NCBI GenBank assembly: GCA_001552015.1
Contig: CP010514.1
Location: forward strand, 330,001 to 362,000
DNA from: Candidatus Nanopusillus acidilobi
GTDB lineage: Archaea > Nanobdellota > Nanobdellia > Nanobdellales > Nanobdellaceae
DNA length: 32,000 bases
Reading direction: 5' to 3'
The notes beneath the pieces are model-generated. The model saw nothing but the letters and a program-made list of their open reading frames with translations. It did not search any database and was not told where the DNA came from. Within the stretch, counting starts at the first letter, position 1. Every line of letters starts with the position of its first letter. Positions 2 through 19,104 of this stretch are shown here, in pieces. The position numbers and the translations under genes are program-made.

Positions 2-280
2 TTATTTTTCTCTTTTTTCTCAGACAAAAAATTTAATATATTTAATTTATTAAAATTAGAACCTCTATACTTTTTTAAAGTTCCAAAAGATATTACAATA
101 AACATAGTTTATTCAAAATTACCTGATCAAAGTATAAATATAGATAAGAATAGTATTGAAAATATATTAAAGGATTTCTTTGAAGTAGATACTATACCTT
201 CATTATCAAAACCAATCCATATTTTAGAAAGTACAAACAGAGAATATAAAAGAAAATTTAGTAAAATTAAAAAATTATAA
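2..280 (+). CDS. 3' end of an unidentified protein gene (5' part lies outside the window)
   Basis: Frame 2 is open from the window edge to TAA at 278-280 (93 codons, ending ...KPIHILESTNREYKRKFSKIKKL). It is missing from the ORF track because no start codon lies in the window. It overlaps the convergent infB stop by 6 nt. No recognisable motif. Confidence 0.4.
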   Translation, partial: LFFSFFSDKKFNIFNLLKLEPLYFFKVPKDITINIVYSKLPDQSINIDKNSIENILKDFFEVDTIPSLSKPIHILESTNREYKRKFSKIKKL

Positions 281-2050
281 TCCCCAAGCAGGGTTTTCTT
301 TTCTTATTATATTTGCTATTTCTTTTAATATTTCCTTTTGCTCATCATTTAAAATATCTTTATTTTCCTTAAATTTCCTATAATCATTTTCAGATATAAA
401 AGTATATAATATATCATCTTCAAATATGTTTCTTCCAACTACTGCATCATCTATAGATATGGCAACTTTATCATTTTTTATAGCTACATCTATATTCTTC
501 TTTTCTTTTTGTATTGTCAAAATTCTTCCAATTATTTTTCCATCTAAATTAATTAAATATACATCTTTTCTTATTTCTCCTCCTAAAACTTCAATTCCAA
601 CAATTGCAGGATTTGATCTTCTAAATATATTTCCCTTTAATATTTTTATCTTTCCTATTGGTGGTAATTCTCTTAATATTTTTTCTTTATTATATTTTAT
701 ATCATTAATATATTTCTCAATTTTTTCAATCAAATCATATATAACACTTGATATTATTAAATTTATATTTGAAGATTTTACATATTCTTCATCATTCTTA
801 TTTATTCCAATATTAAATCCAACTATAACAGAATATTGAGGATATTTTTCTTTCATAGATAATGCAATATTTACATCTTCTTTATTTATATCCCCTATAT
901 CAGCTTTTTTTATTGGTATATTTCTATCTCTTAACATTTTTATTAATACTTCCAGTGATCCTAAAGTATCTGCTTTAACAATAATACCTTCCTTATCAGT
1001 TTGAAATATTATGTTTTCAATATCTTTTTTCAATTTTTCTTCTATTTCCTTTAATTCTTTTTCATCATTATATACATAGATTGTAGAACCTGGTAATGCA
1101 TTATCTAATCCATCTGCTGATATTCTTATCCCACATGCAGCATATGCAACATCTATTTCTTTAAATTTACTTCTACTAGTGAATCTAATATCTGTCAAAG
1201 GTGCTGGTTTTAATATTAATTTTACTTTTGCTGTTTTAATACCATCTCTTGATAAAAAAACAATTTTATCACCTTTCCTTATTTTACCATCATATAATAT
1301 TATATCTATTACACTACCTAAACCCTTTTCTTCTTTTACTTCTAAAATTACACCAACACCATTTCCTTCAACATTTATTTTTAATTTTTCTTCTAAATAT
1401 CTTTGAGAAAGTCCTGCAATTAATAATAATAAATCAGGAATACCTTCTCCAGTTTTTGAAGAAATTGGAACAATTGCAACTTGTCTTCTAAAATCCTTTA
1501 CTCTATCATATCTATCAGAATCAAATCCTAATTCATATAATTTAGTTACAATATTATATGTATATTCTTCTAATTTGTTTATTACTTTTTGATCTTGATA
1601 TTTTATACTTTCTAAAAATGGTTTATTTTCATAAGGTTTCCATCCATCTATTTTATCTATCTTATTTAATGCAATTAAAAATGGTACTTTTAATTGTTTA
1701 CATATTTCTATTGCTTCATATGTTTGCTTTTGAAACCCATCCAATATATCTACTACAATAATTGCTAAATCTGAAACAGATCCACCCCTTTTTCTTAAAT
1801 TACTAAATACTTCATGACCAGGAGTATCAATAAATAACAAAGAAGGAATTTTTAGATCAAATTTAAACATATTTAATAATGGTTTTGATATTTCCTTAAT
1901 TACATCAATCGATACTTCAGTAGCTCCAATATGCTGAGTCATTTCACCAGCTTCTTTTTTTGTATAAGATGTATTTCTAATCTTATCTAATAGAGAAGTT
2001 TTACCAGCTCCAACATGACCTAAAACAACAATTATTGGAGATCTTATCAT
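275..2050 (-). CDS. infB: Translation initiation factor aIF5B (IF-2 family GTPase)
   Basis: 591-aa ORF with an ATG start. G1 motif VLGHVGAGKTSLLD, G3 DTPGH and G4 NKID are present, followed by the beta-barrel and C-terminal domains typical of aIF5B. No intein-sized insertion. Confidence 0.95.
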   Translation of the reverse strand: MIRSPIIVVLGHVGAGKTSLLDKIRNTSYTKKEAGEMTQHIGATEVSIDVIKEISKPLLNMFKFDLKIPSLLFIDTPGHEVFSNLRKRGGSVSDLAIIVVDILDGFQKQTYEAIEICKQLKVPFLIALNKIDKIDGWKPYENKPFLESIKYQDQKVINKLEEYTYNIVTKLYELGFDSDRYDRVKDFRRQVAIVPISSKTGEGIPDLLLLIAGLSQRYLEEKLKINVEGNGVGVILEVKEEKGLGSVIDIILYDGKIRKGDKIVFLSRDGIKTAKVKLILKPAPLTDIRFTSRSKFKEIDVAYAACGIRISADGLDNALPGSTIYVYNDEKELKEIEEKLKKDIENIIFQTDKEGIIVKADTLGSLEVLIKMLRDRNIPIKKADIGDINKEDVNIALSMKEKYPQYSVIVGFNIGINKNDEEYVKSSNINLIISSVIYDLIEKIEKYINDIKYNKEKILRELPPIGKIKILKGNIFRRSNPAIVGIEVLGGEIRKDVYLINLDGKIIGRILTIQKEKKNIDVAIKNDKVAISIDDAVVGRNIFEDDILYTFISENDYRKFKENKDILNDEQKEILKEIANIIRKENPAWGL

Positions 2051-2080: not shown

Positions 2081-2875
2081 TTATGGCCATATCCATCTTC
2101 TATATAAACCTTTTTCATTTGCAAAATTATCTGCTTTTTGATATGATTCTATTGTACCAATATCAAACCAATATTCACTATTACCATCATATACATATCC
2201 ATATATTTTTTCTCCTCTTTTTATTAAATATTCGAAGAAATTTCCCATGGAATCTTTACTATAATTAGAATTCATATATTCATCTAATAAATGCAATTTT
2301 CCCTTTGGAATATAATATATTCCAGTGGATATTGTAGTATATAATGGATTTTGGGGCTTTTCATAAAATTCTTTTATTATATTATTTTCCATTTTTACTA
2401 CTCCATAATTTTTTGCATCATTATAATTTTTTATATCATATACTGCCAAAGCTATAGAATTATTTTCATTTCCCAATTTAATTATTTTATTTAAATTAAA
2501 GCTAAATAAATTATCTCCCAATAATATTAATAGATTATTATTTATGCTCATTTCTTTTATTGCATAATGTAAACCCCCAATTGATCCTAGCTTATTTTCT
2601 TCAGAATTTGATGGTTCAATTACTAATCTTATTTTTCCAATTTGAGAGTATTCATAAAAAGAATATAATGCTGCTAGAATATGTCTAAAATGATTTTCAT
2701 ATTTTTTATTTGTTGATATAATTATTTCATCCGAACCTGTTTCCAATGCTTTTTCTATTATATAATATATTAAAGGTACACCTCCTACTGGAAATAATGG
2801 CTTTGGTACATAATCTGATAATGGTTTAAATCTCTTTGCATAACCACCTGCTAATATTAAAGTATCTAAACTCAT
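2081..2875 (-). CDS. Sugar-phosphate nucleotidyltransferase (NDP-sugar pyrophosphorylase family)
   Basis: 264 aa. The N-terminal LILAGGYAKRFKPLSDYVPKPLFPVGG matches the G-x-G-x-R signature of glucose-1-P thymidylyl/uridylyltransferase-like enzymes. Substrate cannot be assigned. Confidence 0.8.
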   Translation of the reverse strand: MSLDTLILAGGYAKRFKPLSDYVPKPLFPVGGVPLIYYIIEKALETGSDEIIISTNKKYENHFRHILAALYSFYEYSQIGKIRLVIEPSNSEENKLGSIGGLHYAIKEMSINNNLLILLGDNLFSFNLNKIIKLGNENNSIALAVYDIKNYNDAKNYGVVKMENNIIKEFYEKPQNPLYTTISTGIYYIPKGKLHLLDEYMNSNYSKDSMGNFFEYLIKRGEKIYGYVYDGNSEYWFDIGTIESYQKADNFANEKGLYRRWIWP

Positions 2876-2897
2876 AAAGAAAAATTATCAAAAAAAT

Positions 2898-5800
2898 TTA
2901 TGAATAAAATAGTTCATAATTTCCAAATCCTTGTGGTATAAATGTATTATTTGTAGATATTATATTTCCATTACCTCCTACTATCTTTTCTACAATATAA
3001 CTAGTAGCAGATAATAGATTAATAAATGTAATATTTCCATTTATATTTCCTATTATTGATATTCCTTCATAATAATTATATAATGTGTTATTTACATTCG
3101 TACTAGATATTACACTACTTAAACTATTTATGAATCCTTGTGAATTATTATAATATACATTTACACTTCCTGTAGATGTTGTTAAATTATCTATATATCC
3201 ACTTCCATATATTTCAATACCTAATTGTGAATTATATAATGATATGTTTGTTGCATTACCTGTTAAATAATATCCAAATAATCCTCCATTTGTTGTTACA
3301 TTTATTATATTATTATAAGCAGTTTCATATAATCCAAATACCTGTCCTACTTTTATATAATCATTTTCTATATTATTTCCTGAAGATGTTAAATATATTC
3401 CAAATATATTTGATTCTATATTGTTATTTATTATATTATTATTATTTCCATTATTTATCTTTATTCCAAATATGTTAGATATTACATTACTATTTTCTAT
3501 TACATTATTTACTGCATTTCCATCAAAATCTATTCCAAATATTTGTCCATTTATATTTGAATTATTTATTATTACATTATATGGATTGTCATCATATATT
3601 CCCCATACTGATGATTGAATATTTGTATTTTCTATTGTTGAATTTTGTATATAACCATATATTCCTCCTATATTTCCATTTATTGTAGAATTATATACAT
3701 TTACTACTGATGGATTCTTTACATCTATTCCAAACAATCCTGAATTTATATTATCATTTATTAAATTAATAGTTCCATTTTCTACATTTATTGCAAATAG
3801 ATTTGTATTAATATTTATATTCTGTATTGTTACATTTGATGATAATACATCTATAACAGGTAATCCTGGATTTGCAGGTTCAAATATTGTATTTTGTCCT
3901 AATAATGTTATATTTTGACCTTGTGGGTTTATTATTAAGTTTACTAAATATACTCCTGGAGAGAATACTACTACAGGTATAGAACTATTAATTGCTGAAT
4001 CTATTATTCCTTGTATTTGTGTATTACTTAATGTTGGATTTATTACTGATACATTATATGCATTTTGTGATATATATATTACCTGGGGATTTGTATATTG
4101 ATTTAATCCATAATTATTATATGCATATACTTTATACCATATTGAATAATATCCATTACTATTTAATTTTGCATATTCTTGTAATATTCCATTATATAAT
4201 ATATCTGAACATGAATTAATTATTGTTACCCATTGATTACTTGTTTGATTTAATAATTGTATTTGACAATAATCTTGACCTAAAGTATTATCATATACAT
4301 TTGCACTAACTTCTAATAACCATATATTTTCTTGTGTACCATTTGATGGTGTAGGATATGTATATGATACATTAAATATTGGTGAAGGTAATGTATAAAC
4401 ATATATTCCTGTTGAATTTGTTATTCCCTCAGGATTCGATGTTGATAATTCTATTGTAATATTTCCTCCATTTGGTATAATATTATATAATCCTGGTAAA
4501 TTATATGATGAATTTTCATAATTTAATTGAATAATATTATTACCTGGTGTTACATTTATATTATATGTTTGTCCATTTATTGTTACATTTACATTTGGAT
4601 AATTTGTATAGAATGATATATTTAGTTGATAATAATTTGATACTGAATTATTAGATGGGGATATAATATATATTTGTGGATTAACTATAGGAATTATTGT
4701 AATTGTAGTAGAATTCGTAACTCCGTTTGATGCAACACCAGTTACTGTTACACTATAAGTACCTGGTTGTATATTACTATTTGCACTTACTGTTAATGTT
4801 ACTGATGCATTTGGAGTAACAGTAGTATTAGATAAGGAACATTGTAGATTTGAATTACTTGTTGAACAAGATAAAGTAATAGATGCAGGAGTTCCACCAC
4901 TTAGTTGGGTAATATTTATTATTGTAGAATTCGAAGAACCAGCATTTACATACATACTACTTGGTCCCTGTATTGAGAATGAATATGGCTGTACATTAAC
5001 TGTTATAGTAGTAGAATTCGTAACTCCATTTTGCGCTGTACCTGAAATTGTTACTGAATATGTTCCTGGAGTAATTGAAGATGAAGCAGTAACAGTTAAA
5101 GTTACTGATGCATTTGGAGTAGCTTGAGTACTTGATAGTGAACACGATAAATAACTACTATTTGTAGAACAAGATAAGCTAACTGGTAATGGAGATCCGC
5201 TATTTAATTGAGTAATATTAATTGTTGCCGAATTAGAAGAACCCACATATGTATTAATACTACTTGGTCCCTGTATTGAGAATGAATATGGCTGTACATT
5301 AACTGTTATAGTAGTAGAATTCGTAACTCCGTTTGATGCAACACCAGTTACTGTTACACTATAAGTACCTGGTTGTATATTACTATTTGCACTTACTGTT
5401 AATGTTACTGATGCATTTGGAGTAGCTTGAGTACTTGATAGTGAACACGATAAATAACTACTATTTGTAGAACAAGATAAAGTAATGGATAATGGGGACC
5501 CACTATTTAATTGATTTACATATATTGTTGTAGAATTACTATAATTTGTATAAACATCTATACTACTTGGTCCCTGTATTGAGAATGAATATGGCTGTAC
5601 ATTAACTGTTATAGTAGTAGAATTCGTAACTCCATTTTGCGCTGTACCTGAAATTGTTACTGAATATGTTCCTGGAGTAATTGAAGATGAAGCAGTAACA
5701 GTTAAAGTTACTGATGCATTTGGAGTAACAGTAGTATTAGATAAGGAACATTGTAGATTTGAATTACTTGTTGAACAAGAAAGAGTAACTGGCAAAGGTG

Positions 5801-6527
5801 TGTTTCCTGTTAATTGATTTACATATATTGTTGTAGAATTACTATAGTTTGTATAAACATCTATACTGCTTGGTCCTGTAATATCAAAAGTAAATACTGG
5901 AAATCCTAATACTAATGCAGAAACATATTCCGTTGATCCTGGACCAGGGCCAACGTTAAATGAAACACTATAAGTACCTGGAGCTAAATCTTTACATTCC
6001 GCAGCATATACACTTATTTGAGGTGAAGATGTTAAAAATAATTGAGAACATCCATTAGGTAATGTTACCCCACCAATATTACCTCCATTCTTTGTTCCTC
6101 CCGAGGATATTAATATTAATACTGTTTCATTTTGCCCTGAAACAGTATATGAAACTGTTACTGGACCTGGTCTATTATATGTATTTGTAAAAGTAGTTAA
6201 AATAACTGGAACAGAATAATTATTTATAGAAACTCCACCAATTGCATAATTATTAGCTGTAGTAGTAAATGAACAGGTATTTGTACTAGAATTTCCAATT
6301 ACTGCATAATTTCCATTATTTACCATTACATTAAAACTTGGAGTAAGGGTTGAACCTGCAGAAGAAGCAACACAATAATATATATTTGCTGTAGATAATG
6401 TTACACTCTTAGCTTGAGCACTATTACTTCCAACAACATCTGCTCCAACCTGTGAATATATATTAAATGTAGAAATTAACAATAGAAGGCTTACTATAGC
6501 AAAATATAATATTCTTTTTATTCCCAT
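2898..6527 (-). CDS. Large secreted surface protein: signal peptide, four 101-aa Ig-like tandem repeats and a C-terminal parallel beta-helix (candidate adhesin or S-layer-associated glycoprotein)
   Basis: 1209-aa ORF with an ATG start. N-terminus MGIKRILYFAIVSLLLLISTFNIYS is Sec-signal-like. Residues ~211-611 form 4 repeats. Residues ~905-1110 show a 20-23-aa periodicity (xFGIxx). Very many N-x-S/T sequons. Only 2 Arg, about 10 Lys and no His by my reading. Confidence 0.85.
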   Translation of the reverse strand: MGIKRILYFAIVSLLLLISTFNIYSQVGADVVGSNSAQAKSVTLSTANIYYCVASSAGSTLTPSFNVMVNNGNYAVIGNSSTNTCSFTTTANNYAIGGVSINNYSVPVILTTFTNTYNRPGPVTVSYTVSGQNETVLILISSGGTKNGGNIGGVTLPNGCSQLFLTSSPQISVYAAECKDLAPGTYSVSFNVGPGPGSTEYVSALVLGFPVFTFDITGPSSIDVYTNYSNSTTIYVNQLTGNTPLPVTLSCSTSNSNLQCSLSNTTVTPNASVTLTVTASSSITPGTYSVTISGTAQNGVTNSTTITVNVQPYSFSIQGPSSIDVYTNYSNSTTIYVNQLNSGSPLSITLSCSTNSSYLSCSLSSTQATPNASVTLTVSANSNIQPGTYSVTVTGVASNGVTNSTTITVNVQPYSFSIQGPSSINTYVGSSNSATINITQLNSGSPLPVSLSCSTNSSYLSCSLSSTQATPNASVTLTVTASSSITPGTYSVTISGTAQNGVTNSTTITVNVQPYSFSIQGPSSMYVNAGSSNSTIINITQLSGGTPASITLSCSTSNSNLQCSLSNTTVTPNASVTLTVSANSNIQPGTYSVTVTGVASNGVTNSTTITIIPIVNPQIYIISPSNNSVSNYYQLNISFYTNYPNVNVTINGQTYNINVTPGNNIIQLNYENSSYNLPGLYNIIPNGGNITIELSTSNPEGITNSTGIYVYTLPSPIFNVSYTYPTPSNGTQENIWLLEVSANVYDNTLGQDYCQIQLLNQTSNQWVTIINSCSDILYNGILQEYAKLNSNGYYSIWYKVYAYNNYGLNQYTNPQVIYISQNAYNVSVINPTLSNTQIQGIIDSAINSSIPVVVFSPGVYLVNLIINPQGQNITLLGQNTIFEPANPGLPVIDVLSSNVTIQNININTNLFAINVENGTINLINDNINSGLFGIDVKNPSVVNVYNSTINGNIGGIYGYIQNSTIENTNIQSSVWGIYDDNPYNVIINNSNINGQIFGIDFDGNAVNNVIENSNVISNIFGIKINNGNNNNIINNNIESNIFGIYLTSSGNNIENDYIKVGQVFGLYETAYNNIINVTTNGGLFGYYLTGNATNISLYNSQLGIEIYGSGYIDNLTTSTGSVNVYYNNSQGFINSLSSVISSTNVNNTLYNYYEGISIIGNINGNITFINLLSATSYIVEKIVGGNGNIISTNNTFIPQGFGNYELFYS
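3198..3815 (-). repeat. About ten degenerate 20-23-aa beta-helix coils (PbH1-like) in the surface protein
   Basis: Aromatic-Gly motifs recur every 20-23 residues: LFAINV, LFGIDV, IGGIYG, VWGIYD, IFGIDF, IFGIKI, IFGIYL, VFGLYE, LFGYYL, IEIYG. They are separated by Asn-rich turns. Confidence 0.6.
4695..5897 (-). repeat. Four tandem 303-bp (101-aa) coding repeats inside the surface-protein gene
   Basis: The string gaatatggctgtacattaac recurs at 4981, 5284 and 5587 (period 303). Stretch 4705-4818 is identical to 5311-5424 (114 nt, offset 606). About 70 nt from 4801 equals the stretch from 5710 (offset 909). Confidence 0.95.
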
Positions 6528-6600
6528 GAGATATTAGAAAACATTGCCCAATATAAAATTATGATTGTTAATAACCTTAATCATTTATGATAATCGAACC

Positions 6601-6674
6601 CGGGCCCGGGGGGATTCGAACCCCCGATCTTCGGGTTAAAAGCCCGACGCTTTACCAGACTAAGCTACGGGCCC
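6601..6674 (-). tRNA. tRNA-Lys (anticodon UUU)
   Basis: Folded by hand: GGGCCCG TA GCTT AGTCTGGTA AAGC G TCGGG CTTTTAA CCCGA AGATC GGGGG TTCGAAT CCCCC CGGGCCC G. Length 74 nt, no intron, no encoded CCA. Confidence 0.9.
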
Positions 6675-6718
6675 AACAATATTTAATTTATATTTATGAT
6701 TCTTATATAAATTTTTCA

Positions 6719-7405
6719 TTATCCATATAAAGATATATAGTTTATAGATCCATTGAAATATTGAAAATAATTTAAATATACTGTTGGATAAATATTCATT
6801 AATATGTTTGGAAGACCAACAATTTTATCCCCATTATACAAGTATAGTACTGTATTATAATTATTTATAATTAAGAATTTTTCATTTGTATTTATATAAA
6901 TACTAGAATTTCCAATTAAATTAAAATTACAATATAGGAAAGTTCTTGTATATACACTAAAAAATGAAGAACTTAAATAATTATCACAATTATAATATGC
7001 AGAATTGTTTGTTATATTAATATTTTGTGTTATTCCATATATATAAACTTGTAAAATAGATGATACATTTATATTAGAGTTCTGAATTATTTCTATATTG
7101 TTTGAACTCATATTATAAAAAAATTCTATACAATTATTACAAATGTATGAGTTTGTAGATAGAAATATAACATCTGGAGTATAATAATATGAAAAAGAAA
7201 AATTTGTATAATTATATACTATTTGTGGATCATAAAATTGAGAAAAATAAAAAGAACTGGTATATAATTTTTGATATTCAGATATTTTATATAATCCGGA
7301 AGAATATTGAGATAATCCATTGACTATATCTTGATACATATAAACTATAATGTATAAAAATACAGCAAGTGTAATCAATACCTCGATCCAGCTTTGAGAT
7401 TTCAT
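6719..7405 (-). CDS. Hypothetical pilin-like, N-anchored and sequon-rich extracellular protein
   Basis: 228 aa with an ATG start. The N-terminus [24 protein letters not shown] has a short basic leader, then a hydrophobic helix with Glu at +5 if cleaved after Ser3. At least 8 N-x-S/T sequons. ATGA overlap with the upstream platform gene (7402-7405). Confidence 0.6.
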
Positions 7406-8658
7406 ATTGTTACATTAATACTTTGTTTTTGTATATATTTTTTCCCATTATAATTTAATATTGCTTCTACAATATATGTACCAGTGCTATTTAATTCGAT
7501 AGACTGAGAATAATATCCATTCTGTAATATTTGAAAATTCTGGTAAACATAATTTCCAGCTGAATTTATTACATATATTGTTAATGGGGCATTTGTTATT
7601 GGTTGTGCATCAATATATCCATATACTTGTATATTTATTGGAGTATATACATAAGCAGTTGTTGGAAAAACTTGTAAATTAAATGATACAAAAGAGGGTA
7701 GAACAAAAATTACTATAGATAATAATCCTATTAAATTGTTTATTGCTAAATGTTTTACTGAAGATCTTAATTTTCCACTTTCAGCAATGCCCATTATAAT
7801 TGATGCTGAAATTCCTACCATAATTATTGATAAAGATGTAATAAACTTTAACCATGAATAATTTATTTGAGAAGAAAAGAAATTAAATGTTGTATGAATG
7901 GTAGAAACTGAAATTTGACTTATTATCAATGGTTTAATTGTATCTAATATAGAAATTGATAATCCAACAAATATAATGAATATAGCATATAAAACCAATA
8001 TTTGTTGTGATATATATGCTCTCTTTAGTCCATCCAATTCCTTTACGGACTCTAGATCATTATATAACCTTTTTAAAACCTTTGAAATATCACCCCCACC
8101 CTTATATGTTTCTAATATTACATAATTAATCATCTTTATATTTGGAAGTTCTTCAAAATACATATTAAATAGTGTAAATGCCTTTTCAAATGGCATACCC
8201 CAAGCAATCCAATTATATAATTTTTTAACTAAAATAGATAAATATCCTAAATCTACCGAAGATAGATATGCCAGAGCATCCAATAATGTCATTCCGGATG
8301 CTAAACTTTCAGATAAATAAGATAAAAAATATGTATAGTTATTAGATATATTTTCATATATTTTACTTTCAATATACTTGTAAAATAGGTATGGAACTCC
8401 TCCCACAAGATATATAACTATTATTAATATTGAAAGTGCTACATAATTTTCATATAATTTAAATATTATTCCAAATATTCCAATAATTGATGCAAACAAA
8501 ATAGATATATATAATATAAATCTATCTTCCTTAATATATGAACCAAAAACATTTATTTCTTTATAATGTAATGGATCCTTTATATTGAAAATTTGATCTA
8601 TAAATCTTTCAGTTAATCCTTTTTGATTTACCCCTTTATTATATGTATTAGTTATCAT
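7402..8658 (-). CDS. Single-domain T2SS-F/FlaJ/TadC-like polytopic membrane protein with an extra C-terminal beta-rich domain
   Basis: The ORF track starts it at 8682, but that codon is TTG; the first ATG is at 8658. Cytoplasmic helical domain LSESLASGMTLLDALAYLSS...ETYKGGGDISKVLKRLYNDLES is flanked by TM segments. The C-terminal ~90 aa (FPTTAYVYTPINIQVYGY...TYIVEAILNYNGKKY) look like a beta-sandwich. Confidence 0.7.
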   Translation of the reverse strand: MITNTYNKGVNQKGLTERFIDQIFNIKDPLHYKEINVFGSYIKEDRFILYISILFASIIGIFGIIFKLYENYVALSILIIVIYLVGGVPYLFYKYIESKIYENISNNYTYFLSYLSESLASGMTLLDALAYLSSVDLGYLSILVKKLYNWIAWGMPFEKAFTLFNMYFEELPNIKMINYVILETYKGGGDISKVLKRLYNDLESVKELDGLKRAYISQQILVLYAIFIIFVGLSISILDTIKPLIISQISVSTIHTTFNFFSSQINYSWLKFITSLSIIMVGISASIIMGIAESGKLRSSVKHLAINNLIGLLSIVIFVLPSFVSFNLQVFPTTAYVYTPINIQVYGYIDAQPITNAPLTIYVINSAGNYVYQNFQILQNGYYSQSIELNSTGTYIVEAILNYNGKKYIQKQSINVTI

Positions 8659-8675
8659 TATACTTTTAATTTTGG

Positions 8676-9542
8676 ATGTCAATATTTAAATATATGGTTA
8701 GTATATTTGATCAATTTTTTAGTGGTATAGAAAGGGATCTATTAATAATTAATTCTAAAGAAGATCCTTCTAAGTATATATATAAAGCTAAAATGTATTC
8801 AATAGGAATATCAATATCTGTATCAATATTAACATTCTTTTCCCTTTTAATGTATAATATAAAAGTATATGGATCTTTTAATCCAACTTTTCCAATAATA
8901 TTTGGAATACTTACTGGTATCGTAGGATTTTTTGGATCTTTATTTTTATTTAAAAAATATCCTTCAATAGAAAAACAAAATAGAGCTAAAAAAATAGATA
9001 ATTCTTTATATTATGCCGTATTATATATGGCTTCTTTAGTTTCTTCTGGTGCAACCCCAAAAGCATTATTCGAATTATTATCAAAATATAGCGAATTTTC
9101 AGAAATAAAAAAAGAAGCATCTGAAATAATATACTTAATAGATACTGTAGGGTTATCACTACCATTAGCATTAGAAAGAAAGGCGGAATATTCTCCATCA
9201 AAGAAATGGGCTTCAATATTAAATGGAATGAAATCAATAATAGTTGAGGGTGGAAATCTTGAGGAGTATTTATATAATGAAGCTGAGAAATTATTTGATG
9301 AATATAAAAGAAAAATAATAGAATATTCAAATAATATGCAAGTATTCTTAGAAATATATATAACATTAATAATTGTAGGAGTTATATTTGTAATTATATT
9401 AACTACATTGATGGGATCTATTTCTGGAACAAACTTTCAATACATAGAATTTATACAATTAATGAGTATATTAATAATATTGCCAATGGGTACAGTTATG
9501 TTTATTATATTACTAAAAGCAATTAGTCCATTTGAAACATAG
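8676..9542 (+). CDS. Single-domain T2SS-F/FlaJ/TadC-like polytopic membrane protein
   Basis: 288 aa with an ATG start. YYAVLYMASLVSSGATPKALFELLSKY...LPLALERKA...MKSIIVEGGNLEEYLYNEAEKL is the GspF/FlaJ-type cytoplasmic domain, flanked by TM helices. Confidence 0.75.
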   Translation: MSIFKYMVSIFDQFFSGIERDLLIINSKEDPSKYIYKAKMYSIGISISVSILTFFSLLMYNIKVYGSFNPTFPIIFGILTGIVGFFGSLFLFKKYPSIEKQNRAKKIDNSLYYAVLYMASLVSSGATPKALFELLSKYSEFSEIKKEASEIIYLIDTVGLSLPLALERKAEYSPSKKWASILNGMKSIIVEGGNLEEYLYNEAEKLFDEYKRKIIEYSNNMQVFLEIYITLIIVGVIFVIILTTLMGSISGTNFQYIEFIQLMSILIILPMGTVMFIILLKAISPFET

Positions 9543-9549
9543 TATAATT

Positions 9550-10212
9550 TTATCCTGCACTAATATTAAGATTATATATATTTAGAATATTCTGAATCAG
9601 TTGATTATCATTTATTACTTTAATTTCTCCATTTTCTAACCCATTTTTAATTATATCTACAAAATTTCCATTTTGATATTCTAAATAATTCAAAATTTTT
9701 TCAGATATTGAATATGAAAGATAGATTATCAATGTATTATTTATATTATTTATATATGAAATTGGTATGTTTGTAATTCCCTTACTAGTAAATACAAAGG
9801 CTCCACAAGAGTCATTTATACATAATATAAAAGAATATTGAGGATATATAATATTTAATTTTGTATAATATAATTCATAATTTTCCATATATAGAGAATT
9901 ATTTAATAAATAATCGTCTATTTCACTAATAAATTCTACAGAAGTATTTGAATTAGTAAAATTAAGATTTTTTTGATTAAGTACACCATTTATTGACATT
10001 TTAATTATATCATAAGTTGTTAAATTTAATCCATAATACCCAATTTCAGTTTCATTATCTGAAATATTATAAACATATGGTAATTTAAGAGAATATACTG
10101 GATAAAATAAATATCTATATATTATTGAAGCTAAAATCATAAAAATTGAAAATACTATTAAAAAAATCAAAATTTTATCTCTAATAGATGACTTCCTCAA
10201 TATTCCTCTCAT
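9550..10212 (-). CDS. Hypothetical N-terminally membrane-anchored protein
   Basis: 220 aa with an ATG start. MRGILRKSSIRDKILIFLIVFSIFMILASII is a signal anchor. The rest is Asn/Tyr/Ile-rich with several sequons. Its start overlaps the ndk 3' end by 32 nt. No family recognised. Confidence 0.55.
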   Translation of the reverse strand: MRGILRKSSIRDKILIFLIVFSIFMILASIIYRYLFYPVYSLKLPYVYNISDNETEIGYYGLNLTTYDIIKMSINGVLNQKNLNFTNSNTSVEFISEIDDYLLNNSLYMENYELYYTKLNIIYPQYSFILCINDSCGAFVFTSKGITNIPISYINNINNTLIIYLSYSISEKILNYLEYQNGNFVDIIKNGLENGEIKVINDNQLIQNILNIYNLNISAG

Positions 10213-10774
10213 AATTATAGATTTCTTCTGGCTTAAATATTACAAATATTTCTCTTTCTGCATCTTTTTCAGTTTCTGATGCATGAACAACATTCCTTAA
10301 AACAATCTTATTCCAATTTGCATAAGCTATTGATACATGAGCATAATCGCCTCTAATAGTACCTGGTGGAGCTTTTAAAGGTTCTGTTGGTCCAACTAAT
10401 TTTCTAACTTCTTCTACACAATTAACACCTTCTAATACCATAGCAACTACTGGACCTGATGTTATAAAATCTATTAGCCATCCTCTTATTATACTTCCAA
10501 TTTTCTTTGGATCATCAGTTCCAAATTCTTTTACAGGATCCAATCCCATCTCTTTATATCTTGTTATTGTCTTATTTCCAACACTTTCCAACCATTTTTC
10601 ATCTGCATAATAAAATTTTTCTGCTTGTTCTTTTGTTAATTTTATCATTTTTAATCCTATAATTTTTAAACCTGCTTTCTCAAATCTAGATATTATTTCT
10701 CCAACAATTCCTCTTTTAACACTATCTGGTTTTAATACTACCAATGTCTTCTGTATTAAATGCTTTCCATTCAT
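10181..10774 (-). CDS. ndk: Nucleoside diphosphate kinase (long form with insertions)
   Basis: Motifs TLVVLKPDSVKRGIVGEIISRFEKAG, GPVVAMVLEG, APPGTIRGDYA and NVVHASE (catalytic His). At 197 aa it is longer than the usual ~150 aa because of two internal insertions. Confidence 0.9.
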   Translation of the reverse strand: MNGKHLIQKTLVVLKPDSVKRGIVGEIISRFEKAGLKIIGLKMIKLTKEQAEKFYYADEKWLESVGNKTITRYKEMGLDPVKEFGTDDPKKIGSIIRGWLIDFITSGPVVAMVLEGVNCVEEVRKLVGPTEPLKAPPGTIRGDYAHVSIAYANWNKIVLRNVVHASETEKDAEREIFVIFKPEEIYNYERNIEEVIY

Positions 10775-10950
10775 ACTTTATTATAAAATACCGTCCATTT
10801 TAGCTTTTTATTGTCTCTCTTCATTTCCCAGTTTTTAATACACTTTCTTGAACAAAAATATAAAATAGTACCATTATTTAATGCATATATAATTCCAGTA
10901 CCTGGTTCTATTTCTCTCCCACAATATGAACACTTATTCTTAACAACCAT
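10771..10950 (-). CDS. rpl24e: Ribosomal protein L24e (eL24)
   Basis: Not in the ORF track (59 aa). My translation is MVVKNKCSYCGREIEPGTGIIYALNNGTILYFCSRKCIKNWEMKRDNKKLKWTVFYNKV, with the C-x2-C...C-x3-C zinc-ribbon pattern of L24e. Its TGA stop overlaps the ndk ATG. It starts 2 nt after the rps28e stop. Confidence 0.85.
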   Translation of the reverse strand: MVVKNKCSYCGREIEPGTGIIYALNNGTILYFCSRKCIKNWEMKRDNKKLKWTVFYNKV

Positions 10951-10952
10951 TT

Positions 10953-11246
10953 TTAATCTTTCTTTTCAATTGGCATAGCCGATATTTCTGTTTCCCTTAA
11001 TAATATTATATCCCCCTTTCTAACAGGTCCTATTACATTCCTTCTAAGAATTTTTCCGGAATCTGGACCATCAAGTATTCTTACAATAACATGCGTAGCT
11101 TCACCCCTCATACCAGTTCTTCCAACGACATCTAATACTTCTGCCTTGTATCCCTTAGTCCATGTTACAATATTTTCTTTTACAACATTTTCTTCAGCAT
11201 TTCTTATACCTTCTTCACCTGTTTTTGATACAACTTTTCTAGGCAT
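10953..11246 (-). CDS. rps28e: Ribosomal protein S28e (eS28) with an N-terminal extension
   Basis: The core [53 protein letters not shown] matches the S28e OB-fold signature. About 25-30 additional N-terminal residues. Confidence 0.9.
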
Positions 11247-11298: not shown

Positions 11299-14200
11299 AT
11301 GACATCTGAAAATTCTAATTTAAATAATAATAAACAAGAAACAAAAGTTAATAGATTAAGAAAAATATTCTCATGGAATATACTAATAGATGTATTATTA
11401 ATTATATTTATATTCTTATTTACTTTGGGATCAAAAGGTTTATTACTTAATTTCTTAGGAAATTATTCTTTAGTAGGACCTGATGCATACTTAATGTTTA
11501 AATATTTTGAATCTTTAGTATTTAATCATACAGTAAATAGTTTTACATATAATTTAAATTATCCATTACCATTTTATTTATACAATAAAGATCTTGTATC
11601 ATATTTAGCATTTTTATCTTATTTGATGTTCCAAAACTTTGGTAATCAAATTATTGCATTATTAAATATTTTACAAATACATCCAGCATCAAATATTATT
11701 TTATGGTTAGCAGCAGACTTTACAAATGTATATGTTCCTGCAATTGCTTCAATTATATTTTATTTTTTAGCAAGGAATATATTCAAAGATAAATATTTAG
11801 CACTTTTTTCTTCTATGATTTTTGCTATAAATCCATTTTTGACAACAAGACTAATTTTATTTGATACTGAATTAGGAGCAATTATTTTCCTAGTATTATC
11901 TTTCTACCTTATAATTAAATACTTTAATGCAAAACCTGAGAATAATAAATACAAAAAATTATTCTTAATTCTTTATTCAATTATTAGCTTAATAATATTT
12001 TATAAAACATCTTTATTACCAAATCCAGATGTATATTTAACAATTGAATTATTTGTATTCTTCTTTATATTATTATTATTATATCCAGTATTCAAAGGAT
12101 CAAGAGCTTATTATTTAACATTATTAATATTTACTACTGCATTAACTAGAAAAGGATGGGGTGGATGGATAATAATACCAATTGTATTTGGTTTAACATT
12201 ATTAATTAGATATTTCTATGATAGAGATTATAAAGATATATATTTCTATTTACCATATATTGGATTTACTGGAATATTAGATAATTTATTAACACCTGGG
12301 GTTTTAGGAATTGGTTTATTTTTAAGTTATCACAATCTATTTTTAGAACTTTCAATGATTTTGATATTTTTATATGAAATATTAAAAGATAATAAAATAC
12401 TGGAAAAAATTACTGAAAGTAAAACATATCTGCTAATATTATCTATTTTGTCTGGATTAATCCCAGGAATACCTATATTCATTATAAATAAATATACTAA
12501 AGATAATAAATTACTAAAGAAATATACAATATTTCTAATAATCCTTATTATATCCTTACCATTTTTAATTGATAAATTAATTATATCTTTCTTATATAAT
12601 CCATTTACATATGCAAGAATGGGTTCTACAATTGCAGAATTTCAACCAACTACTGCAGGATATTATTTTGGTTTATTTGGACCAATTGGTTTAATATTAA
12701 CTTATTTGGGTCTTGGATATCTAATATTTGATAAAAATAAGTCTAAAAATCTTTTAATATCTGAATTTTTGTTTATATTTATATTAACTATATCGGAATT
12801 TCTTATTGGCCCATCTATATATCTTTTAACATTTTATCTATTAATTTATTCTATATTTATAATATCATATAATAAAGAAAGTAATATATATGATATTATA
12901 AAGACAATATTTGAAACATTTACATTATCAATTGCCATTCAATTTGTAATATTTTCAGATTTAGTAATTAATGGAATATATATAAGTATATTTATATCTT
13001 GGGTTACTTTTCTCATTTTAGCAGTCTATATTTCATTATTTAATAGAAATCTAAATGATGGAGAAATATTTGTATTATCATTATCATTTATAGCACTTAT
13101 TGTAGGAAAATATATATATGAATTAGTTTATTATAATGGTTTGGCTCTCCCATTATTATATATATTTGGTATAGAAATATTCAATTTATTTAAAGATGAA
13201 TTTTCCAAATTAAAGAATATTATAAAAGAAAATTTAATATTAATATTATTATTAATTTCATCTATTTCAGGAATATCTCTATTTATATCAACAAACATAT
13301 TCTTATTCTTAATTCCACTGATATTTTTAGCAATATATATTTTATATGAATATATATTAGATAAGAATTTGGACCTATTTAATTTATTTAAATATAGTTT
13401 AATTTTATTTACAATATTTGGTCCTTTATTTTCTATAAGCAATAAAATCTATGGATATCCTGGATATATAGCAAACTATTTTTCAAGTGCTGGTCAATAT
13501 GGAACTCCAGATTATGAAATAAATACTTTCTTATGGATAAGTCAAAATACTCCACAAAATTCTATTATAAATTCTTGGTGGGATTATGGATATTATATTT
13601 ATGTATTGGGAAATAGAACTGCATGGATAAATGGTGCAAATGCATATCCATATTGGAATCATTTAATGGGTAGATATGGTTTATCTTCAGATAATATAAC
13701 ACAAACATTACAATTATTCTATGTACATGCAGATTATAATTATCAAACATTTAAAACATTGGAATTATTCAATGAAAATTCAATATTCTATAATTATTTA
13801 TATAAATATTTGGGATTTAATGAAAGTGAAGTAAATGAAATTGAAGAATTAAAAGATTCCTTAGGATATAAAAATTGGATAAATCTATTATATCAATTTA
13901 ATGGATCTCCAGAATCAATTTCATCATATAACTTATCTCAACAAGATATAGAACTATTAGAAAAATTGTATAATATGAATTATTTGAAACCAGCATATTT
14001 ATATATAGATCCTACAGATATAGGAAAATCCTTTGCTTTCCAATTTTTAGGATCAAATGAAAGTTATGATAAAGAATCATGGATATCTCAATTTGCATCT
14101 GGAACAACAGAAAATCCGGGACCAACAATACCTTCAGTATATTATGATGGATATTATATATTTGCAACAAATAATAGTTTATTCTACTTTGGTCAAGAAC

Positions 14201-14877
14201 CATTGGATCAAGATTTGAATATTAATGGAACTATAATAAATAGATGCATATATGTACAGAACCAGGGTATAATTAACCAAAATAGTTGTGGAATAATAAC
14301 TGGAGTCCAATTATTATTTAATCAATCTATAGTAGAAAGATCTGGAATATATCAGACATTAAATATAGATAATATTAATCCAGATAATTTAATAGGGGCA
14401 TATGTATATATTTATTATCCATTAAATAATCAACAATATTCACTTTCATTAAAATATATAGATATTGATGGACAATTGATTACATTTAATAATTCTCAAT
14501 ATGATGGATTATTATATATAACCCCAGATTACTCATTATTACAGCAAAATAATCCATTAGGATTGTTCTTATATGCATATTTTATATCACAAAAAGCTAC
14601 CCAATATGATTGGGTACAATTATATTTCTTAAACAATGATTATAATGGAACATTTAATCCTGTATTTTATTCAAATGAATTATATAGCCTTCCTTCAATA
14701 ATATATTATGATATTCCTCCAGCAAAAGTATGGAAAATTAATTTCCCAGAGAACTTCACAGTTCCAGATTATTTATATTGTATCTATCTAGCAACAAATA
14801 TTCAACAAATAAATGAATGTGGAAAAATATATAATTTAGCCTATTATGAAAATATGAAAAATTATTATGATGTATGA
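11299..14877 (+). CDS. aglB: Archaeal oligosaccharyltransferase AglB (STT3 family), unusually long
   Basis: 1192 aa. WWDYG lies at residues 760-764 (nt 13576-13590). An acidic EL1-like motif [11 protein letters not shown] sits near residue 60. The polytopic N-terminal region is about 750 aa. Confidence 0.9.
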
Positions 14878-15877
14878 AGAAATTTTAATTGCTGTATTAC
14901 CACTAATATTGTCTTTTTTTGTTTCATATTATTTAATAAAAAAATGGATACCAATTGCTCATAAAGAAGGATATATAGGAAAAGATATGAATAAGTATAA
15001 TAAACCTGAAGTAGCAGAAATTGGTGGTTTATATGCAATAATTGGTACAATATTTGGAATATTATTATATATTGGATTAAAAGTATATATATTAGGAACT
15101 ACAGAAGATTTAGTAGAAGTATTTTCAATATTAACATTATTATCATTAACTACAATATTAGGATTATTTGACGATATATTAGGATGGAAAAAAGGATTGA
15201 AACCTTTACATAGAGTAATTCTATCATTTATATTAGCACTACCATTAATGATAATATCTGCAGGTAATTCATATATTAATTTACCATTTGTAGGAGAAGT
15301 AAATTTTGGAATATTATATCCACTATTAATAGTACCAATTGCAATAATGGGTACATCAAATGCATTTAATATGCTTGCTGGATATAATGGTTTGGAAGGA
15401 TCTATGGGTATTTTACTAATTGGTGCAATAGGATTAGAGTCATATTTAATTGGTAATTATTATTTAGCAGAAATATCATTAATAACAATATTTTCAATAA
15501 TAGCATTTCTAATATTTAACTGGTATCCAGCAAAAGTATTTCCTGGAAATGCATTTACATATGGTATTGGATCTCTATTTGGTGCAATAGTAATATTAGG
15601 AAACCTTGAAAAATTTGGACTAATTTTGTTTACATTATATTTCTTGGAATTGATATTATTTATAAGAGGACTATTAAATCATATATACAAAGAAAACTTT
15701 GGAATACCTGATGAAAATAATAATCTAAAAGAACCATATGATAAAACATATAGTGTTACTCATCTTGCAATTAAAATAAATAGAAAGATATTTAAGAAAG
15801 CAACAGAGAAAATGGTGGTATATACAATAATTTTACTACAAATAATAATAACAATAATAGCTTTTATATATGGATAA
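14867..15877 (+). CDS. Dolichyl-phosphate HexNAc-1-phosphate transferase (Alg7/AglH type, Glycos_transf_4 family)
   Basis: 336-aa polytopic protein. Motifs LFDDILGW and NAFNMLAGYNGLEGS (eukaryal/archaeal GPT-type N-x-x-N-x-L-A-G-x-N-G-L-E). Overlaps aglB by 11 nt. Confidence 0.8.
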   Translation: MMYEEILIAVLPLILSFFVSYYLIKKWIPIAHKEGYIGKDMNKYNKPEVAEIGGLYAIIGTIFGILLYIGLKVYILGTTEDLVEVFSILTLLSLTTILGLFDDILGWKKGLKPLHRVILSFILALPLMIISAGNSYINLPFVGEVNFGILYPLLIVPIAIMGTSNAFNMLAGYNGLEGSMGILLIGAIGLESYLIGNYYLAEISLITIFSIIAFLIFNWYPAKVFPGNAFTYGIGSLFGAIVILGNLEKFGLILFTLYFLELILFIRGLLNHIYKENFGIPDENNNLKEPYDKTYSVTHLAIKINRKIFKKATEKMVVYTIILLQIIITIIAFIYG

Positions 15878-18546: not shown

Positions 18547-19104
18547 TTAATATTCTCTATTATTTAATATACTTTTAATTTTTTCTTTAATTTTATTAAA
18601 TATTTCTTCAGAATAAAATTTCTTATATTCTTTTAATAAATTTATTAATTCTTGATCAATATCAATTATTTTATCATCTATTAAATATTGTATAAACTGT
18701 GTTAAATTTGAAGGATTGTTTTTTAATCTTGCCCTTTCCCAATCTATTAAATAAATTTTATCATCTTTAATAATTATATGTTCATAAGGTCTTCTCATTT
18801 CTTCTTTTTCAATTTTTAATTTATCTAATAAAAACAAAATATCTAAAATATTATCTAAATATTTTTTCTTTTCTTCTAAATCTAAATCTTCAAATTTCTT
18901 ACCATCAATATATTCCATTTCTATTTCCAAATTTTTATCATTATGAGAAATAATTCTTGGAACAAAACCATAATTACTTAAAAGATTTAAAAAATATTTT
19001 TCTTTTTCATAGTTTTTATATAATTTACCCTTAAATTTTTTTATTATTGTACCATTTTCTGTTAAAAAAATTTCAGAATGCCAACCTTCATCAATCTTTT
19101 TCAT
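18547..19104 (-). CDS. Small atypical protein-kinase-fold protein (Bud32/RIO-like superfamily, divergent catalytic loop)
   Basis: 185 aa. Glycine-loop-like GWHSEIF, Lys in IIKKF, hinge MEYIDG and metal-binding-like IYLIDWERA. The canonical HxD catalytic loop is replaced by EEMRRPYEHIII. ATGA overlap with thrS. Confidence 0.45.
   Translation of the reverse strand: MKKIDEGWHSEIFLTENGTIIKKFKGKLYKNYEKEKYFLNLLSNYGFVPRIISHNDKNLEIEMEYIDGKKFEDLDLEEKKKYLDNILDILFLLDKLKIEKEEMRRPYEHIIIKDDKIYLIDWERARLKNNPSNLTQFIQYLIDDKIIDIDQELINLLKEYKKFYSEEIFNKIKEKIKSILNNREY

Follow-up and report, generated by a model that had tools for sequence, protein, structure and literature searches.

A Split Type IV Pilus Platform in Candidatus Nanopusillus acidilobi Is Probably the Detached End of a DPANN-Wide Pilus Operon

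Introduction

The Epd pilus of Methanococcus maripaludis is built with two PilC paralogues, EpdJ and EpdK, both of which are reported to be essential, together with the ATPase EpdL, and its pilins are processed by EppA at K-G/Q sites that carry Gln at position +1 and Glu at position +5 (PMC4371748). The PilB3-PilC3 pilus of Haloferax volcanii has an established role in adhesion. Its platform protein, PilC3, is a single two-domain protein; in bacterial Tad/Flp loci, the ATPase gene (TadA) is followed by two platform genes (TadB and TadC), each with a single T2SSF domain. Few symbionts of the DPANN archaea (Diapherotrites, Parvarchaeota, Aenigmarchaeota, Nanoarchaeota, Nanohaloarchaeota) have been brought into culture; Candidatus Nanopusillus acidilobi and Nanobdella aerobiophila are two of them. 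Here we analyze a stretch of 32,000 nucleotides of the N. acidilobi genome (hereafter the window), in which two divergent genes that each encode one T2SSF domain, N-half and C-half, lie beside the gene for a 228-aa pilin-like protein, p228 (Table 1). A preliminary description had grouped these three genes, lying between ndk and infB, with those for a 220-aa membrane-anchored protein (p220), tRNA-Lys, a giant secreted protein, and a sugar nucleotidyltransferase as an orphan set, plausibly a surface attachment or filament apparatus of an undescribed kind. Our analyses indicate instead that N-half, C-half, and p228 probably make up the platform portion of an operon for a type IV pilus of the Epd/Tad/PilB3-PilC3 kind. 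This operon extends across the DPANN archaea and would here have been broken up, with its ATPase encoded in trans.

As in the Epd system, one ATPase would go with two separate PilC-type proteins, and the Q+1/E+5 motif of the Epd pilins is that of p228 and of a pilin-like family encoded downstream of the platform genes in other DPANN archaea. This likeness is one of gene organization and motif, and there are differences: in the Nanopusillaceae the ATPase and platform genes are unlinked, the half-genes are divergent, C-half carries an extra beta-sandwich, and no EppA or other A24 peptidase is known in nanoarchaea. With the Haloferax system, the DPANN loci share the PilB3_C domain (PF23989) on their ATPases and weak accessory matches to DUF7287 and DUF7289. 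The Haloferax pilins, however, are PibD substrates without Gln at +1, unlike p228. The two single-T2SSF genes behind an ATPase gene also recall the bacterial Tad/Flp arrangement, but the window halves match only archaeal models (ArlJ, BasF, and UpsF) and belong to an archaeal DPANN lineage; no secretin or other bacterial Tad-specific gene was seen in 80 loci, in which such genes were not specifically searched for.

Results and Discussion

The Two T2SSF Proteins Correspond to Complementary Halves of One Platform

Both proteins score well above the Pfam cutoff of 25.2 bits for T2SSF (PF00482), N-half with 58.8 bits (E=6.7e-16) and C-half with 50.9 bits (E=1.9e-13), and both are polytopic, with four and five to six hydrophobic 19-mers, respectively, on the Kyte-Doolittle scale. 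Wurch et al. (2016; PMC4935971, Suppl. file 2) list the genes of N. acidilobi in a table in which the window order is that of Nps_01890-01955; the two proteins appear there as Nps_01920 (N-half, 4 transmembrane [TM] segments) and Nps_01915 (C-half, 5 TM segments), and each is assigned to arCOG01808 under the name "Flp pilus assembly protein TadC". The two proteins divide a platform between them. On the NCBIfam ArlJ model NF004705 (465 positions), N-half covers positions 2-173 and C-half positions 188-453; N-half also matches positions 22-248 of a 555-position ArlJ model. The same division is seen on unsplit archaeal TadC proteins of 480-610 aa, taken from genes that follow ATPase genes in other archaea, where the family profile of N-half fits best on the first half and that of C-half on the second. 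For example, in such a protein from locus L111, residues 60-329 are covered by the N-half profile (118 bits) and residues 339-605 by the C-half profile (128 bits). Because of this complementary coverage of the ArlJ model and the fit of the profiles to the two parts of unsplit TadC proteins, the two T2SSF genes are, as judged from sequence, the complementary N- and C-terminal halves of one PilC/TadC/FlaJ-type platform. The kinship to FlaJ/TadC recognized in the preliminary description is therefore sound, but the two genes are halves of one platform and not two equivalent platforms. Sequence searches of the PDB with the N-half profile and with C-half returned no meaningful match.

The ArlJ/FlaJ models are the best-scoring curated models and the best NCBIfam matches of both proteins, the archaellum platform belonging to the same superfamily. 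The two genes might then be a split ArlJ of an archaellum, whose two archaellins are encoded in the same window 12-15 kb away; gene splitting is, in addition, frequent in Nanoarchaeota. We consider this highly improbable. The scores against the ArlJ models are 55-93 bits, far below cutoffs of 400-550 (400-570 for NF004703-5), and since they reach only about one-tenth of these cutoffs, we take the window halves to be members of the superfamily that are not archaellar. Moreover, the pair is not the genome's only candidate for arlJ: the published tables list a separate, unsplit FlaJ, of 549 aa in Nanobsidianus stetteri Nst1 (Nst1_461, arCOG01809), whose archaellins, at 283 and 197 aa, have the sizes of those in the window (Makarova et al. 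2016, PMC4858521), and Nps_02340, with 10 TM segments, in N. acidilobi, whereas the window genes are arCOG01808 TadC. The N. acidilobi table also places FlaI, FlaH, and FlaD/E at Nps_00925-00940 (FlaI/FlaH being Nps_00925/00930) and FlaG at Nps_03420 (PMC4935971). Finally, the DPANN orthologues of the window pair follow an ATPase of the PilB3_C type and are accompanied by pilin genes, and the gene tables of the loci examined show no ArlH-like gene and no ArlF or ArlG.

The start codons bear on how the two half-genes relate to each other. If the upstream TTG and ATG starts are used, their ORFs (open reading frames) overlap by 7 nt. The likely ATG starts, of which that of N-half is also the one picked by gene callers in relatives, leave a 35-bp AT-rich spacer between the divergent genes, which we presume to be a shared bidirectional promoter region. 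In the YN1 genome, the half-gene starts are likewise 35 bp apart.

C-half ends in an extension of ~90 aa (residues ~335-426) that is extracellular, beta-sandwich-like, and gives weak matches to MG2 and DUF3244. This extension is found only in the Nanopusillaceae and in one hot-spring Nanoarchaeia metagenome-assembled genome (MAG; locus L024, 4276-5433). Other DPANN C-halves, with a median length of 312 aa, lack it and have instead a Cys-containing loop insertion between TM segments. Since L024 combines the C-half extension with a canonical operon, the extension must be older than the scrambling of the locus in the Nanopusillaceae.

An exact-sequence look-up of N-half found no entry. N-half is 94% identical in Candidatus Nanopusillus MAGs, 92% in Nanobsidianus stetteri Nst1, 66% in YN1, and 60% in Nanobdella aerobiophila. 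Comparison with four Nanopusillus strains gave ratios of nonsynonymous to synonymous substitution (dN/dS) of 0.14-0.19 for N-half, 0.14-0.20 for C-half, and 0.09-0.17 for p228, with 0.10-0.17 for ndk, 0.09 for infB, and 0.21-0.36 for p220. The range for the three pilus genes, 0.09-0.20, is similar to that for ndk and infB, and these genes are thus under purifying selection and are maintained, not decaying.

The Platform Pair Belongs to a DPANN-Wide Operon That Is Rearranged in the Nanopusillaceae

A scan of the N-half alignment against one genome per GTDB species yielded 72 loci, the ORFs of which were classed by jackhmmer. Outside the Nanopusillaceae, every one of the 57 loci not cut by a contig end shows the same arrangement on one strand: a T2SSE ATPase gene with the PilB3_C domain, then N-half (~283 aa), then C-half (~312 aa). 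The lineages include Aenigmatarchaeota, Undinarchaeota, Nanohaloarchaeota, Naiadarchaeum, Micrarchaeota, and other DPANN. Indeed, a platform encoded by two genes is standard among the more than 60 DPANN loci collected, and in a limited literature search we found no paper stating it as such. Upstream of these operons are small proteins with class III signals, among them a DUF7289-like family (52 hits) and a family of ~145 aa (49 hits), and, in 17 of the 34 loci with enough upstream sequence, as well as in further metagenome loci, a thermosome gene on the same strand. Downstream of C-half there is often a pilin-like protein of 150-276 aa that starts with [KR][GA]-Q-x-x-x-E, and in several loci this KGQxxxE gene overlaps C-half by 4 nt.

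The Nanopusillaceae depart from this arrangement in a uniform way. All 18 of their loci, among them those of the completely sequenced Nanobdella aerobiophila MJ1 and YN1 (one locus ends before C-half and one is without ndk), have the order p228(-), C-half(-), N-half(+), p220(-), ndk(-), L24e(-), S28e(-), AglB(+). The loci keep intact ORFs in this order across genera whose proteins are only 50-66% identical. In none of the 18 does a T2SSE ATPase gene lie within 10 kb.

Nine Aenigmatarchaeota loci (L032, L045, L046, L050, L053, L057, L063, L064, and L067) have ndk on the opposite strand at a distance of 4-8 kb downstream from the pilus operon; in L057 the ndk gene (16138-16611) is followed by genes for adenylate kinase and threonyl-tRNA synthetase (ThrRS), the latter of which is also found near ndk in the window. 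These nine are a different set from the loci with an upstream thermosome gene. Because ndk is found near these operons, the ndk neighborhood of the platform genes may be old, and the platform genes may never have moved.

Two further loci were considered as possible paralogue loci, P0023 of Nanopusillus and L126 of the Nanopusillaceae, and set aside. One, P0023, belongs to another DPANN lineage. The other, L126, carries a compact operon (497-aa ATPase, 292-aa N-half, and 279-aa C-half) with flanks unlike those of N. acidilobi; it is a genome-sized contig (Ga0326760_1000001, 650,731 bp, 26% GC) of another small-genome archaeon. In addition, many metagenome assemblies contain a low-GC (24-29%) locus in which an ATPase gene of ~442 aa is followed by two single-domain T2SSF genes of ~333 and ~232 aa (L084, L094-L098, L104, L118-L120, L125, L134, L135, L152, L155, L160, L176, and L200). 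These ATPases score nearly alike from locus to locus, and the arrangement looks Tad-like.

p228 Resembles the Pilin-Like Protein Encoded Downstream of C-Half in Other DPANN Archaea

The N terminus of p228 has the features of a class III signal, with a hydrophobic segment at residues 5-23 behind a charged N terminus, and the motif M-[KR]-[SG]/Q-S-W-I-E-[VF]-L is kept in most of 15 orthologues. The signal is followed by a Cys-containing, sequon-rich domain that is predicted to be beta-rich. The presence of a type IV filament platform together with a pilin-like protein in this host-attached, reduced-genome nanoarchaeon, as had been proposed, is thus borne out by the T2SSF domains and by the class III signal of p228.

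Profile comparisons connect p228 to the DPANN pilin-like family downstream of C-half. With hhalign, p228 aligns to this family with probabilities of 88% (E 2.8e-6) and 80% (E 1.4e-5), and to the other accessory families of the operon with at most 3%; a jackhmmer search from L024_276, the positional orthologue in L024, reaches p228 at E ~3e-4. The start of p228 overlaps the stop of C-half by 4 nt (ATGA), by which p228 is predicted to be translationally coupled to C-half. Because p228 matches the DPANN downstream family and has the same overlap, C-half and p228 appear to have kept their ancestral linkage, while N-half has been inverted. No match to curated pilin families (Class_IIIsignal, DUF7287, and others) in Pfam or NCBIfam was found for p228; L024_276 matches DUF7287 at E=9e-4, below the cutoff. 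In a single-sequence AlphaFold2 (AF2) model, only helix 6-37 of p228 is predicted with confidence. The N. acidilobi table lists both p228 and p220 as "uncharacterized protein, 1 TM" (PMC4935971).

The Orthologous ATPase Is Encoded beside the Thermosome Gene

The preliminary description had noted that the window encodes no PilB/ArlI-type ATPase, and a family-profile search of the window ORFs for T2SSE ATPases was indeed negative. ArlH and A24 peptidases were not seen in the ORF lists and Pfam scans made, which did not include a dedicated scan of every ORF. A homology search from the L024 ATPase returned 7870 hits, of which the best 120 were all from other DPANN, with no Nanopusillaceae among them. 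Metagenome contigs were also scanned with a DNA pattern for RKF...RxRPD...GE[VI]RGxEA in AT-rich codons, which yielded 120 loci. One of these, L130, is a Nanopusillus contig (23% G+C) from the same Yellowstone sample as locus L003. It encodes, in order, a nucleotide kinase, the thermosome, a 183-aa coiled-coil protein, a 280-aa DUF7289-like protein, a 126-aa protein with one TM segment, and a 594-aa ATPase; these are followed on the other strand by an RPA-like protein, a 142-aa pilin-like protein, an RNA-binding protein, and SbcD. The 142-aa protein (9784-10212, -) has the N terminus MVKRTQG/LPINTIVLAIIAIVV and a weak match to Flp1_like and is a typical archaeal pilin candidate. The gene order is that of Nps_01150-01195 in N. 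acidilobi, where the thermosome, coiled-coil protein, DUF7289-like pilin-like protein, and ATPase are Nps_01155-01175 (PMC4935971). The same contig encodes, 6 kb upstream of the ATPase (848-1408, -), a very small exosortase/archaeosortase-like protein of 186 aa (PF09721, E=8e-10).

The L130 ATPase matches the profile of the DPANN operon ATPases at E=1.6e-205, and its best BLAST hits outside its own family, at 45-52% identity and 460-505 bits, are the ATPases encoded ahead of split platforms. The gene is intact and 96-97% conserved between strains. No T2SSF gene follows it in L130, L103, or L147; L164, which contains only ~1 kb downstream of the ATPase, is uninformative on this point. In sequence and synteny, the L130-type ATPase is thus the apparent orthologue of the ATPases in the DPANN split-platform operons, and from the L130 synteny and these best hits it appears that the ATPase half of the operon stayed by the thermosome gene; the platform half lies by ndk. 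The DUF7287 and DUF7289 matches of the accessory pilin-like proteins are weak and below Pfam cutoffs. In the tree of Makarova et al. (PMC4858521), an Nst1 ATPase whose GenInfo identifier maps to Nst1_088 groups with ATPases of Nanoarchaeum equitans and Methanocaldococcus, with weak support (0.51).

These data change what may be said of the set. Its orphan status is real in that no ATPase is encoded within 10 kb, but the platform is probably not partnerless, an orthologous ATPase being encoded beside the thermosome gene; the orphan appearance arises from the extreme scrambling of operons that characterizes Nanoarchaeota. For genome scans in general, a partner missing within 30 kb says little in nanoarchaeal genomes. 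Nor does the idea of an undescribed apparatus stand: the pair belongs to the DPANN-wide ATPase/N-half/C-half operon, the orthologous ATPase and pilin-like genes are found elsewhere in Nanopusillus, the two genes were already annotated as TadC, and multiple nanoarchaeal type IV pilus systems are in the literature. Jarett et al. (2018), for example, described two type IV pilus systems and an archaellum, with four FlaJ/TadC homologues, in Nanoarchaeota. We interpret the set as a functional but fragmented pilus of a known kind, not as a new apparatus.

The choice of ATPase requires further comment. The N. acidilobi table contains six arCOG01808 genes, not all of which are paired, and five T2SSE ATPases. 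Besides the window pair, it lists another split TadC pair with an ATPase (Nps_03250/03255 and Nps_03260), an ATPase with a TadC (Nps_03100/03105), a lone TadC (Nps_02675), a T2SSF gene with an ATPase (Nps_02245/02250), and Nps_00520 (PMC4935971). Nst1 similarly has five ATPases, one archaellar and four others, and Makarova et al. (2016) noted that duplicated ATPase/TadC sets may share pilins (PMC4858521). The window pair might therefore serve a paralogous ATPase of the Nps_03100 or Nps_03260 type, or several ATPases, and not the thermosome-linked one. This seems to us quite unlikely: Nps_03100 and Nps_03260 already adjoin their own TadC genes, and only the thermosome-linked ATPase shares synteny and best hits with the ATPases that precede orthologues of the window pair.

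A Model for the Fragmented Pilus

Collectively, these data suggest a model in which the ancestral order was thermosome, coiled-coil protein, pilin-like genes, T2SSE ATPase, N-half, C-half, and a pilin-like gene with the Q+1/E+5 motif. In the Nanopusillaceae, a break would have occurred between the ATPase and the platform genes, with N-half inverted relative to C-half and p228, so that the ATPase and the upstream pilin-like genes were kept beside the thermosome (the Nps_01155-01185 region) and the platform genes now lie beside ndk. The two half-proteins, which may be co-expressed from the shared 35-bp spacer, would form a membrane heterodimer equivalent to a two-domain PilC, to EpdJ plus EpdK, or to TadB plus TadC. 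The hexameric ATPase, encoded in trans, would dock on the cytoplasmic domains of the platform halves and drive processed class-III-signal pilins out of the membrane into the filament. In this model, p228 would be a minor or priming pilin-like subunit, made in a fixed ratio to C-half through the ATGA overlap. Adhesion is a likely role for such a pilus, plausibly adhesion to the host cell. The model names the components of a candidate adhesion pilus, which are the split platform, p228, the thermosome-linked ATPase, and pilin-like proteins of the DUF7289-like and other types.

Several observations count against this interpretation. No pili have been tied experimentally to N-half, C-half, or p228. 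Only ~36 N-terminal residues of p228 are homologous to the DPANN pilin-like family, and the single-sequence AF2 models are poor (predicted local distance difference test [pLDDT] scores of 46 overall for p228 and 43 for p220). The additional TadC and ATPase genes of N. acidilobi listed above make cross-pairing possible. In addition, the annotation of N. acidilobi includes no A24 prepilin peptidase (PibD/FlaK/EppA), and Makarova et al. (2016) found none in two nanoarchaea (PMC4858521), so that pilin processing lacks a recognizable enzyme. Yet nanoarchaea encode archaellins, five T2SSE ATPases, and many proteins with class III signals, some with an EppA-type Q+1/E+5 site. Finally, proteomics of N. 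acidilobi detected no product of Nps_01900-01925 (PMC4935971). Such absence is weak evidence, however, as membrane proteins and proteins poor in Lys and Arg are hard targets for tryptic proteomics.

The last two points, together with the fragmentation of the operon, would also be expected if the module were a decaying, nonfunctional relic of a pilus operon that has lost its ATPase. We give this only a slim chance, given that the ORFs are intact and keep their order in 18 loci across genera at 50-66% protein identity, that the dN/dS ratios of 0.09-0.20 equal those of ndk and infB, and that the ATPase orthologue is itself intact and 96-97% conserved between strains.

The Giant Protein, the Nucleotidyltransferase, and p220 Are Neighbors of the Pilus Genes

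Every gene that the preliminary description had listed in this part of the window is present where it was placed (Table 1), including the 2-nt gap between rps28e and rpl24e, the 4-nt overlap of rpl24e with ndk, and the 32-nt overlap of ndk with p220. The grouping of seven of these items as one module, on the other hand, is not supported: the giant protein is variable, the nucleotidyltransferase is an ordinary neighbor of ndk and aIF5B, and p220 has no detectable link to a pilus.

Table 1. Features of the window, with positions numbered from its first nucleotide
Feature	Position	Strand	Description
infB/aIF5B	275-2050	-	
Sugar-1-phosphate nucleotidyltransferase (NTP_transferase)	2081-2875	-	PF00483, E=6.8e-41
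Giant secreted protein	2898-6527	-	1209 aa; signal or anchor sequence, repeats, right-handed beta-helix
tRNA-Lys(UUU)	6600-6675	-	ARAGORN and Rfam; between giant gene and p228
p228	6719-7405	-	228 aa; class III signal peptide, Gln +1, Glu +5 (KS/QSWIE site)
Platform C-half	7402-8682	-	426 aa from TTG 8682 (418 aa from ATG 8658); one T2SSF domain, five to six hydrophobic segments
C-half extension	7402-7680	-	Beta-sandwich-like
Spacer between likely ATG starts of the half-genes	8659-8693		35 bp, AT-rich
Platform N-half	8676-9542	+	288 aa from first ATG (282 aa from ATG 8694); one T2SSF domain, four hydrophobic segments
p220	9550-10212	-	220 aa; N-anchored, extracytoplasmic; start overlaps ndk by 32 nt; convergent with N-half, 7-nt gap
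ndk	10181-10774	-	
rpl24e (L24e)	10771-10950	-	4-nt overlap with ndk
rps28e (S28e)	10953-11246	-	2-nt gap to rpl24e
AglB/STT3 candidate	11299-14877	+	1192 aa; multi-TM; WWDYG motif
GT4 (AglH-like)	14867-15877	+	
Wzx-like flippase	15870-17660	+	
ThrRS	19101-20471		
Archaellin	21519-22370	-	283 aa; PF01917
Class-III-signal protein	23567-24184	-	205 aa; MAKMKG/QAFQ
Archaellin	24177-24770	-	197 aa; PF01917
Reverse gyrase, helicase half	28830-30602	-	590 aa; zf_Rg, DEAD, Helicase_C

The giant protein (Nps_01900, an "uncharacterized secreted protein" in the table of Wurch et al., PMC4935971) contains four Ig-like repeats of 101 aa (residues 218-621; period of 303 bp), a right-handed beta-helix that matches PF13229 at the Pfam cutoff, and 48 N-X-S/T sequons, with only 12 Lys and Arg residues (1%). 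A PDB sequence search gave no meaningful match. The protein is found only in the Nanopusillus/Nanobsidianus group, and even there it is variable. The number of repeat copies in five strains is 4, 4, 1, 1, and 0, and sequence identity is 70-74% between strains whose neighboring genes are 90-94% identical. The gene is fragmented in L012 and absent from YN1, Nanobdella, L006, and L018. In Nanopusillus MAG RHS.bin.5 (locus L015, 7542-8043), it is reduced to a 342-bp 3' remnant that is 77.5% identical to window positions 2876-3235, which marks a recent deletion of a surface-protein gene beside tRNA-Lys. The giant protein is a candidate variable, fast-evolving accessory surface glycoprotein, plausibly an adhesin. 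Its assignment as an S-layer protein was considered and rejected, as it is missing or decayed in close relatives and has no S-layer domain match, and the predicted S-layer protein is Nps_00760.

In other genera, tRNA-Lys lies on the far side of the nucleotidyltransferase gene, which abuts p228 with gaps of 9-30 bp in L001, L006, L016, and L018. Genes for NDK, aIF2/5B, and a nucleotidyl transferase are also contiguous in the gene table of the crenarchaeal Acidilobus host (PMC4935971). In the window, a candidate AglB/STT3 oligosaccharyltransferase, a GT4 glycosyltransferase, and a flippase form an N-glycosylation cluster next to ndk-L24e-S28e; the AglB candidate has no Pfam or NCBIfam match, and STT3/AglB structures in the PDB match it only around the WWDYG motif. 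The nucleotidyltransferase, an NDP-sugar pyrophosphorylase, lies on the opposite side of the pilus genes from this cluster, and it is more likely to be connected with surface glycosylation than with the pilus.

p220 has one hydrophobic segment (residues 14-32) and nine sequons. It has no Pfam or NCBIfam match; among 1.84 billion proteins, 10 representative clusters match it, and it is restricted to the Nanopusillaceae. Comparison of p220 with every pilus accessory family by hhalign gave probabilities below 2%. From its 32-nt overlap with ndk, p220 is probably co-transcribed with S28e-L24e-ndk. We treat the giant protein, tRNA-Lys, the nucleotidyltransferase, and p220 as neighbors of the pilus genes and not as demonstrated parts of the pilus.

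It might nonetheless be argued that p220, the platform pair, p228, the giant protein, and the nucleotidyltransferase together make up one autonomous, undescribed attachment organelle that works without a PilB/ArlI ATPase, as membrane or secreted proteins are clustered within 8 kb by the N-glycosylation cluster, p220 and the giant protein have no recognizable family, and the order p228, C-half, N-half, p220 is kept across the Nanopusillaceae. We find this very unlikely, in view of the absence or decay of the giant protein in close relatives, the presence of the nucleotidyltransferase beside ndk and aIF5B in a crenarchaeon too, and the ATPase-linked ancestry of the platform, whose orthologous ATPase is retained under the same synteny. 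Moreover, no T2SSF protein is known to act without a T2SSE ATPase.

A related possibility, unlikely but not negligible, is that the scrambling is non-neutral and that the platform with its beta-sandwich, p220, the glycosylation cluster, and, in Nanopusillus, the hypervariable Ig-repeat/beta-helix adhesin constitute a specialized glycosylated host-contact organelle. In such an organelle, the role of the platform would go beyond pilus assembly: it might anchor or export the adhesin and might use an unrecognized, non-A24 prepilin peptidase.

Other Features of the Window

The window has a G+C content of ~23%, and its source is Nanopusillus (Nanoarchaeota). The stretch with the genes for the two archaellins and the 205-aa class-III-signal protein, which the preliminary description had not mentioned, is locally richer in G+C (0.33 vs 0.23). 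An Rfam scan of the window identified only four tRNAs. The S28e protein, of 97 aa, has an N-terminal extension of ~30 aa before its Pfam domain (residues 31-90), and the length of this extension is kept across the Nanopusillaceae loci. Finally, of reverse gyrase only the helicase half is encoded in the window; a split reverse gyrase is common to N. equitans and Nst1 and is a hallmark of nanoarchaea.

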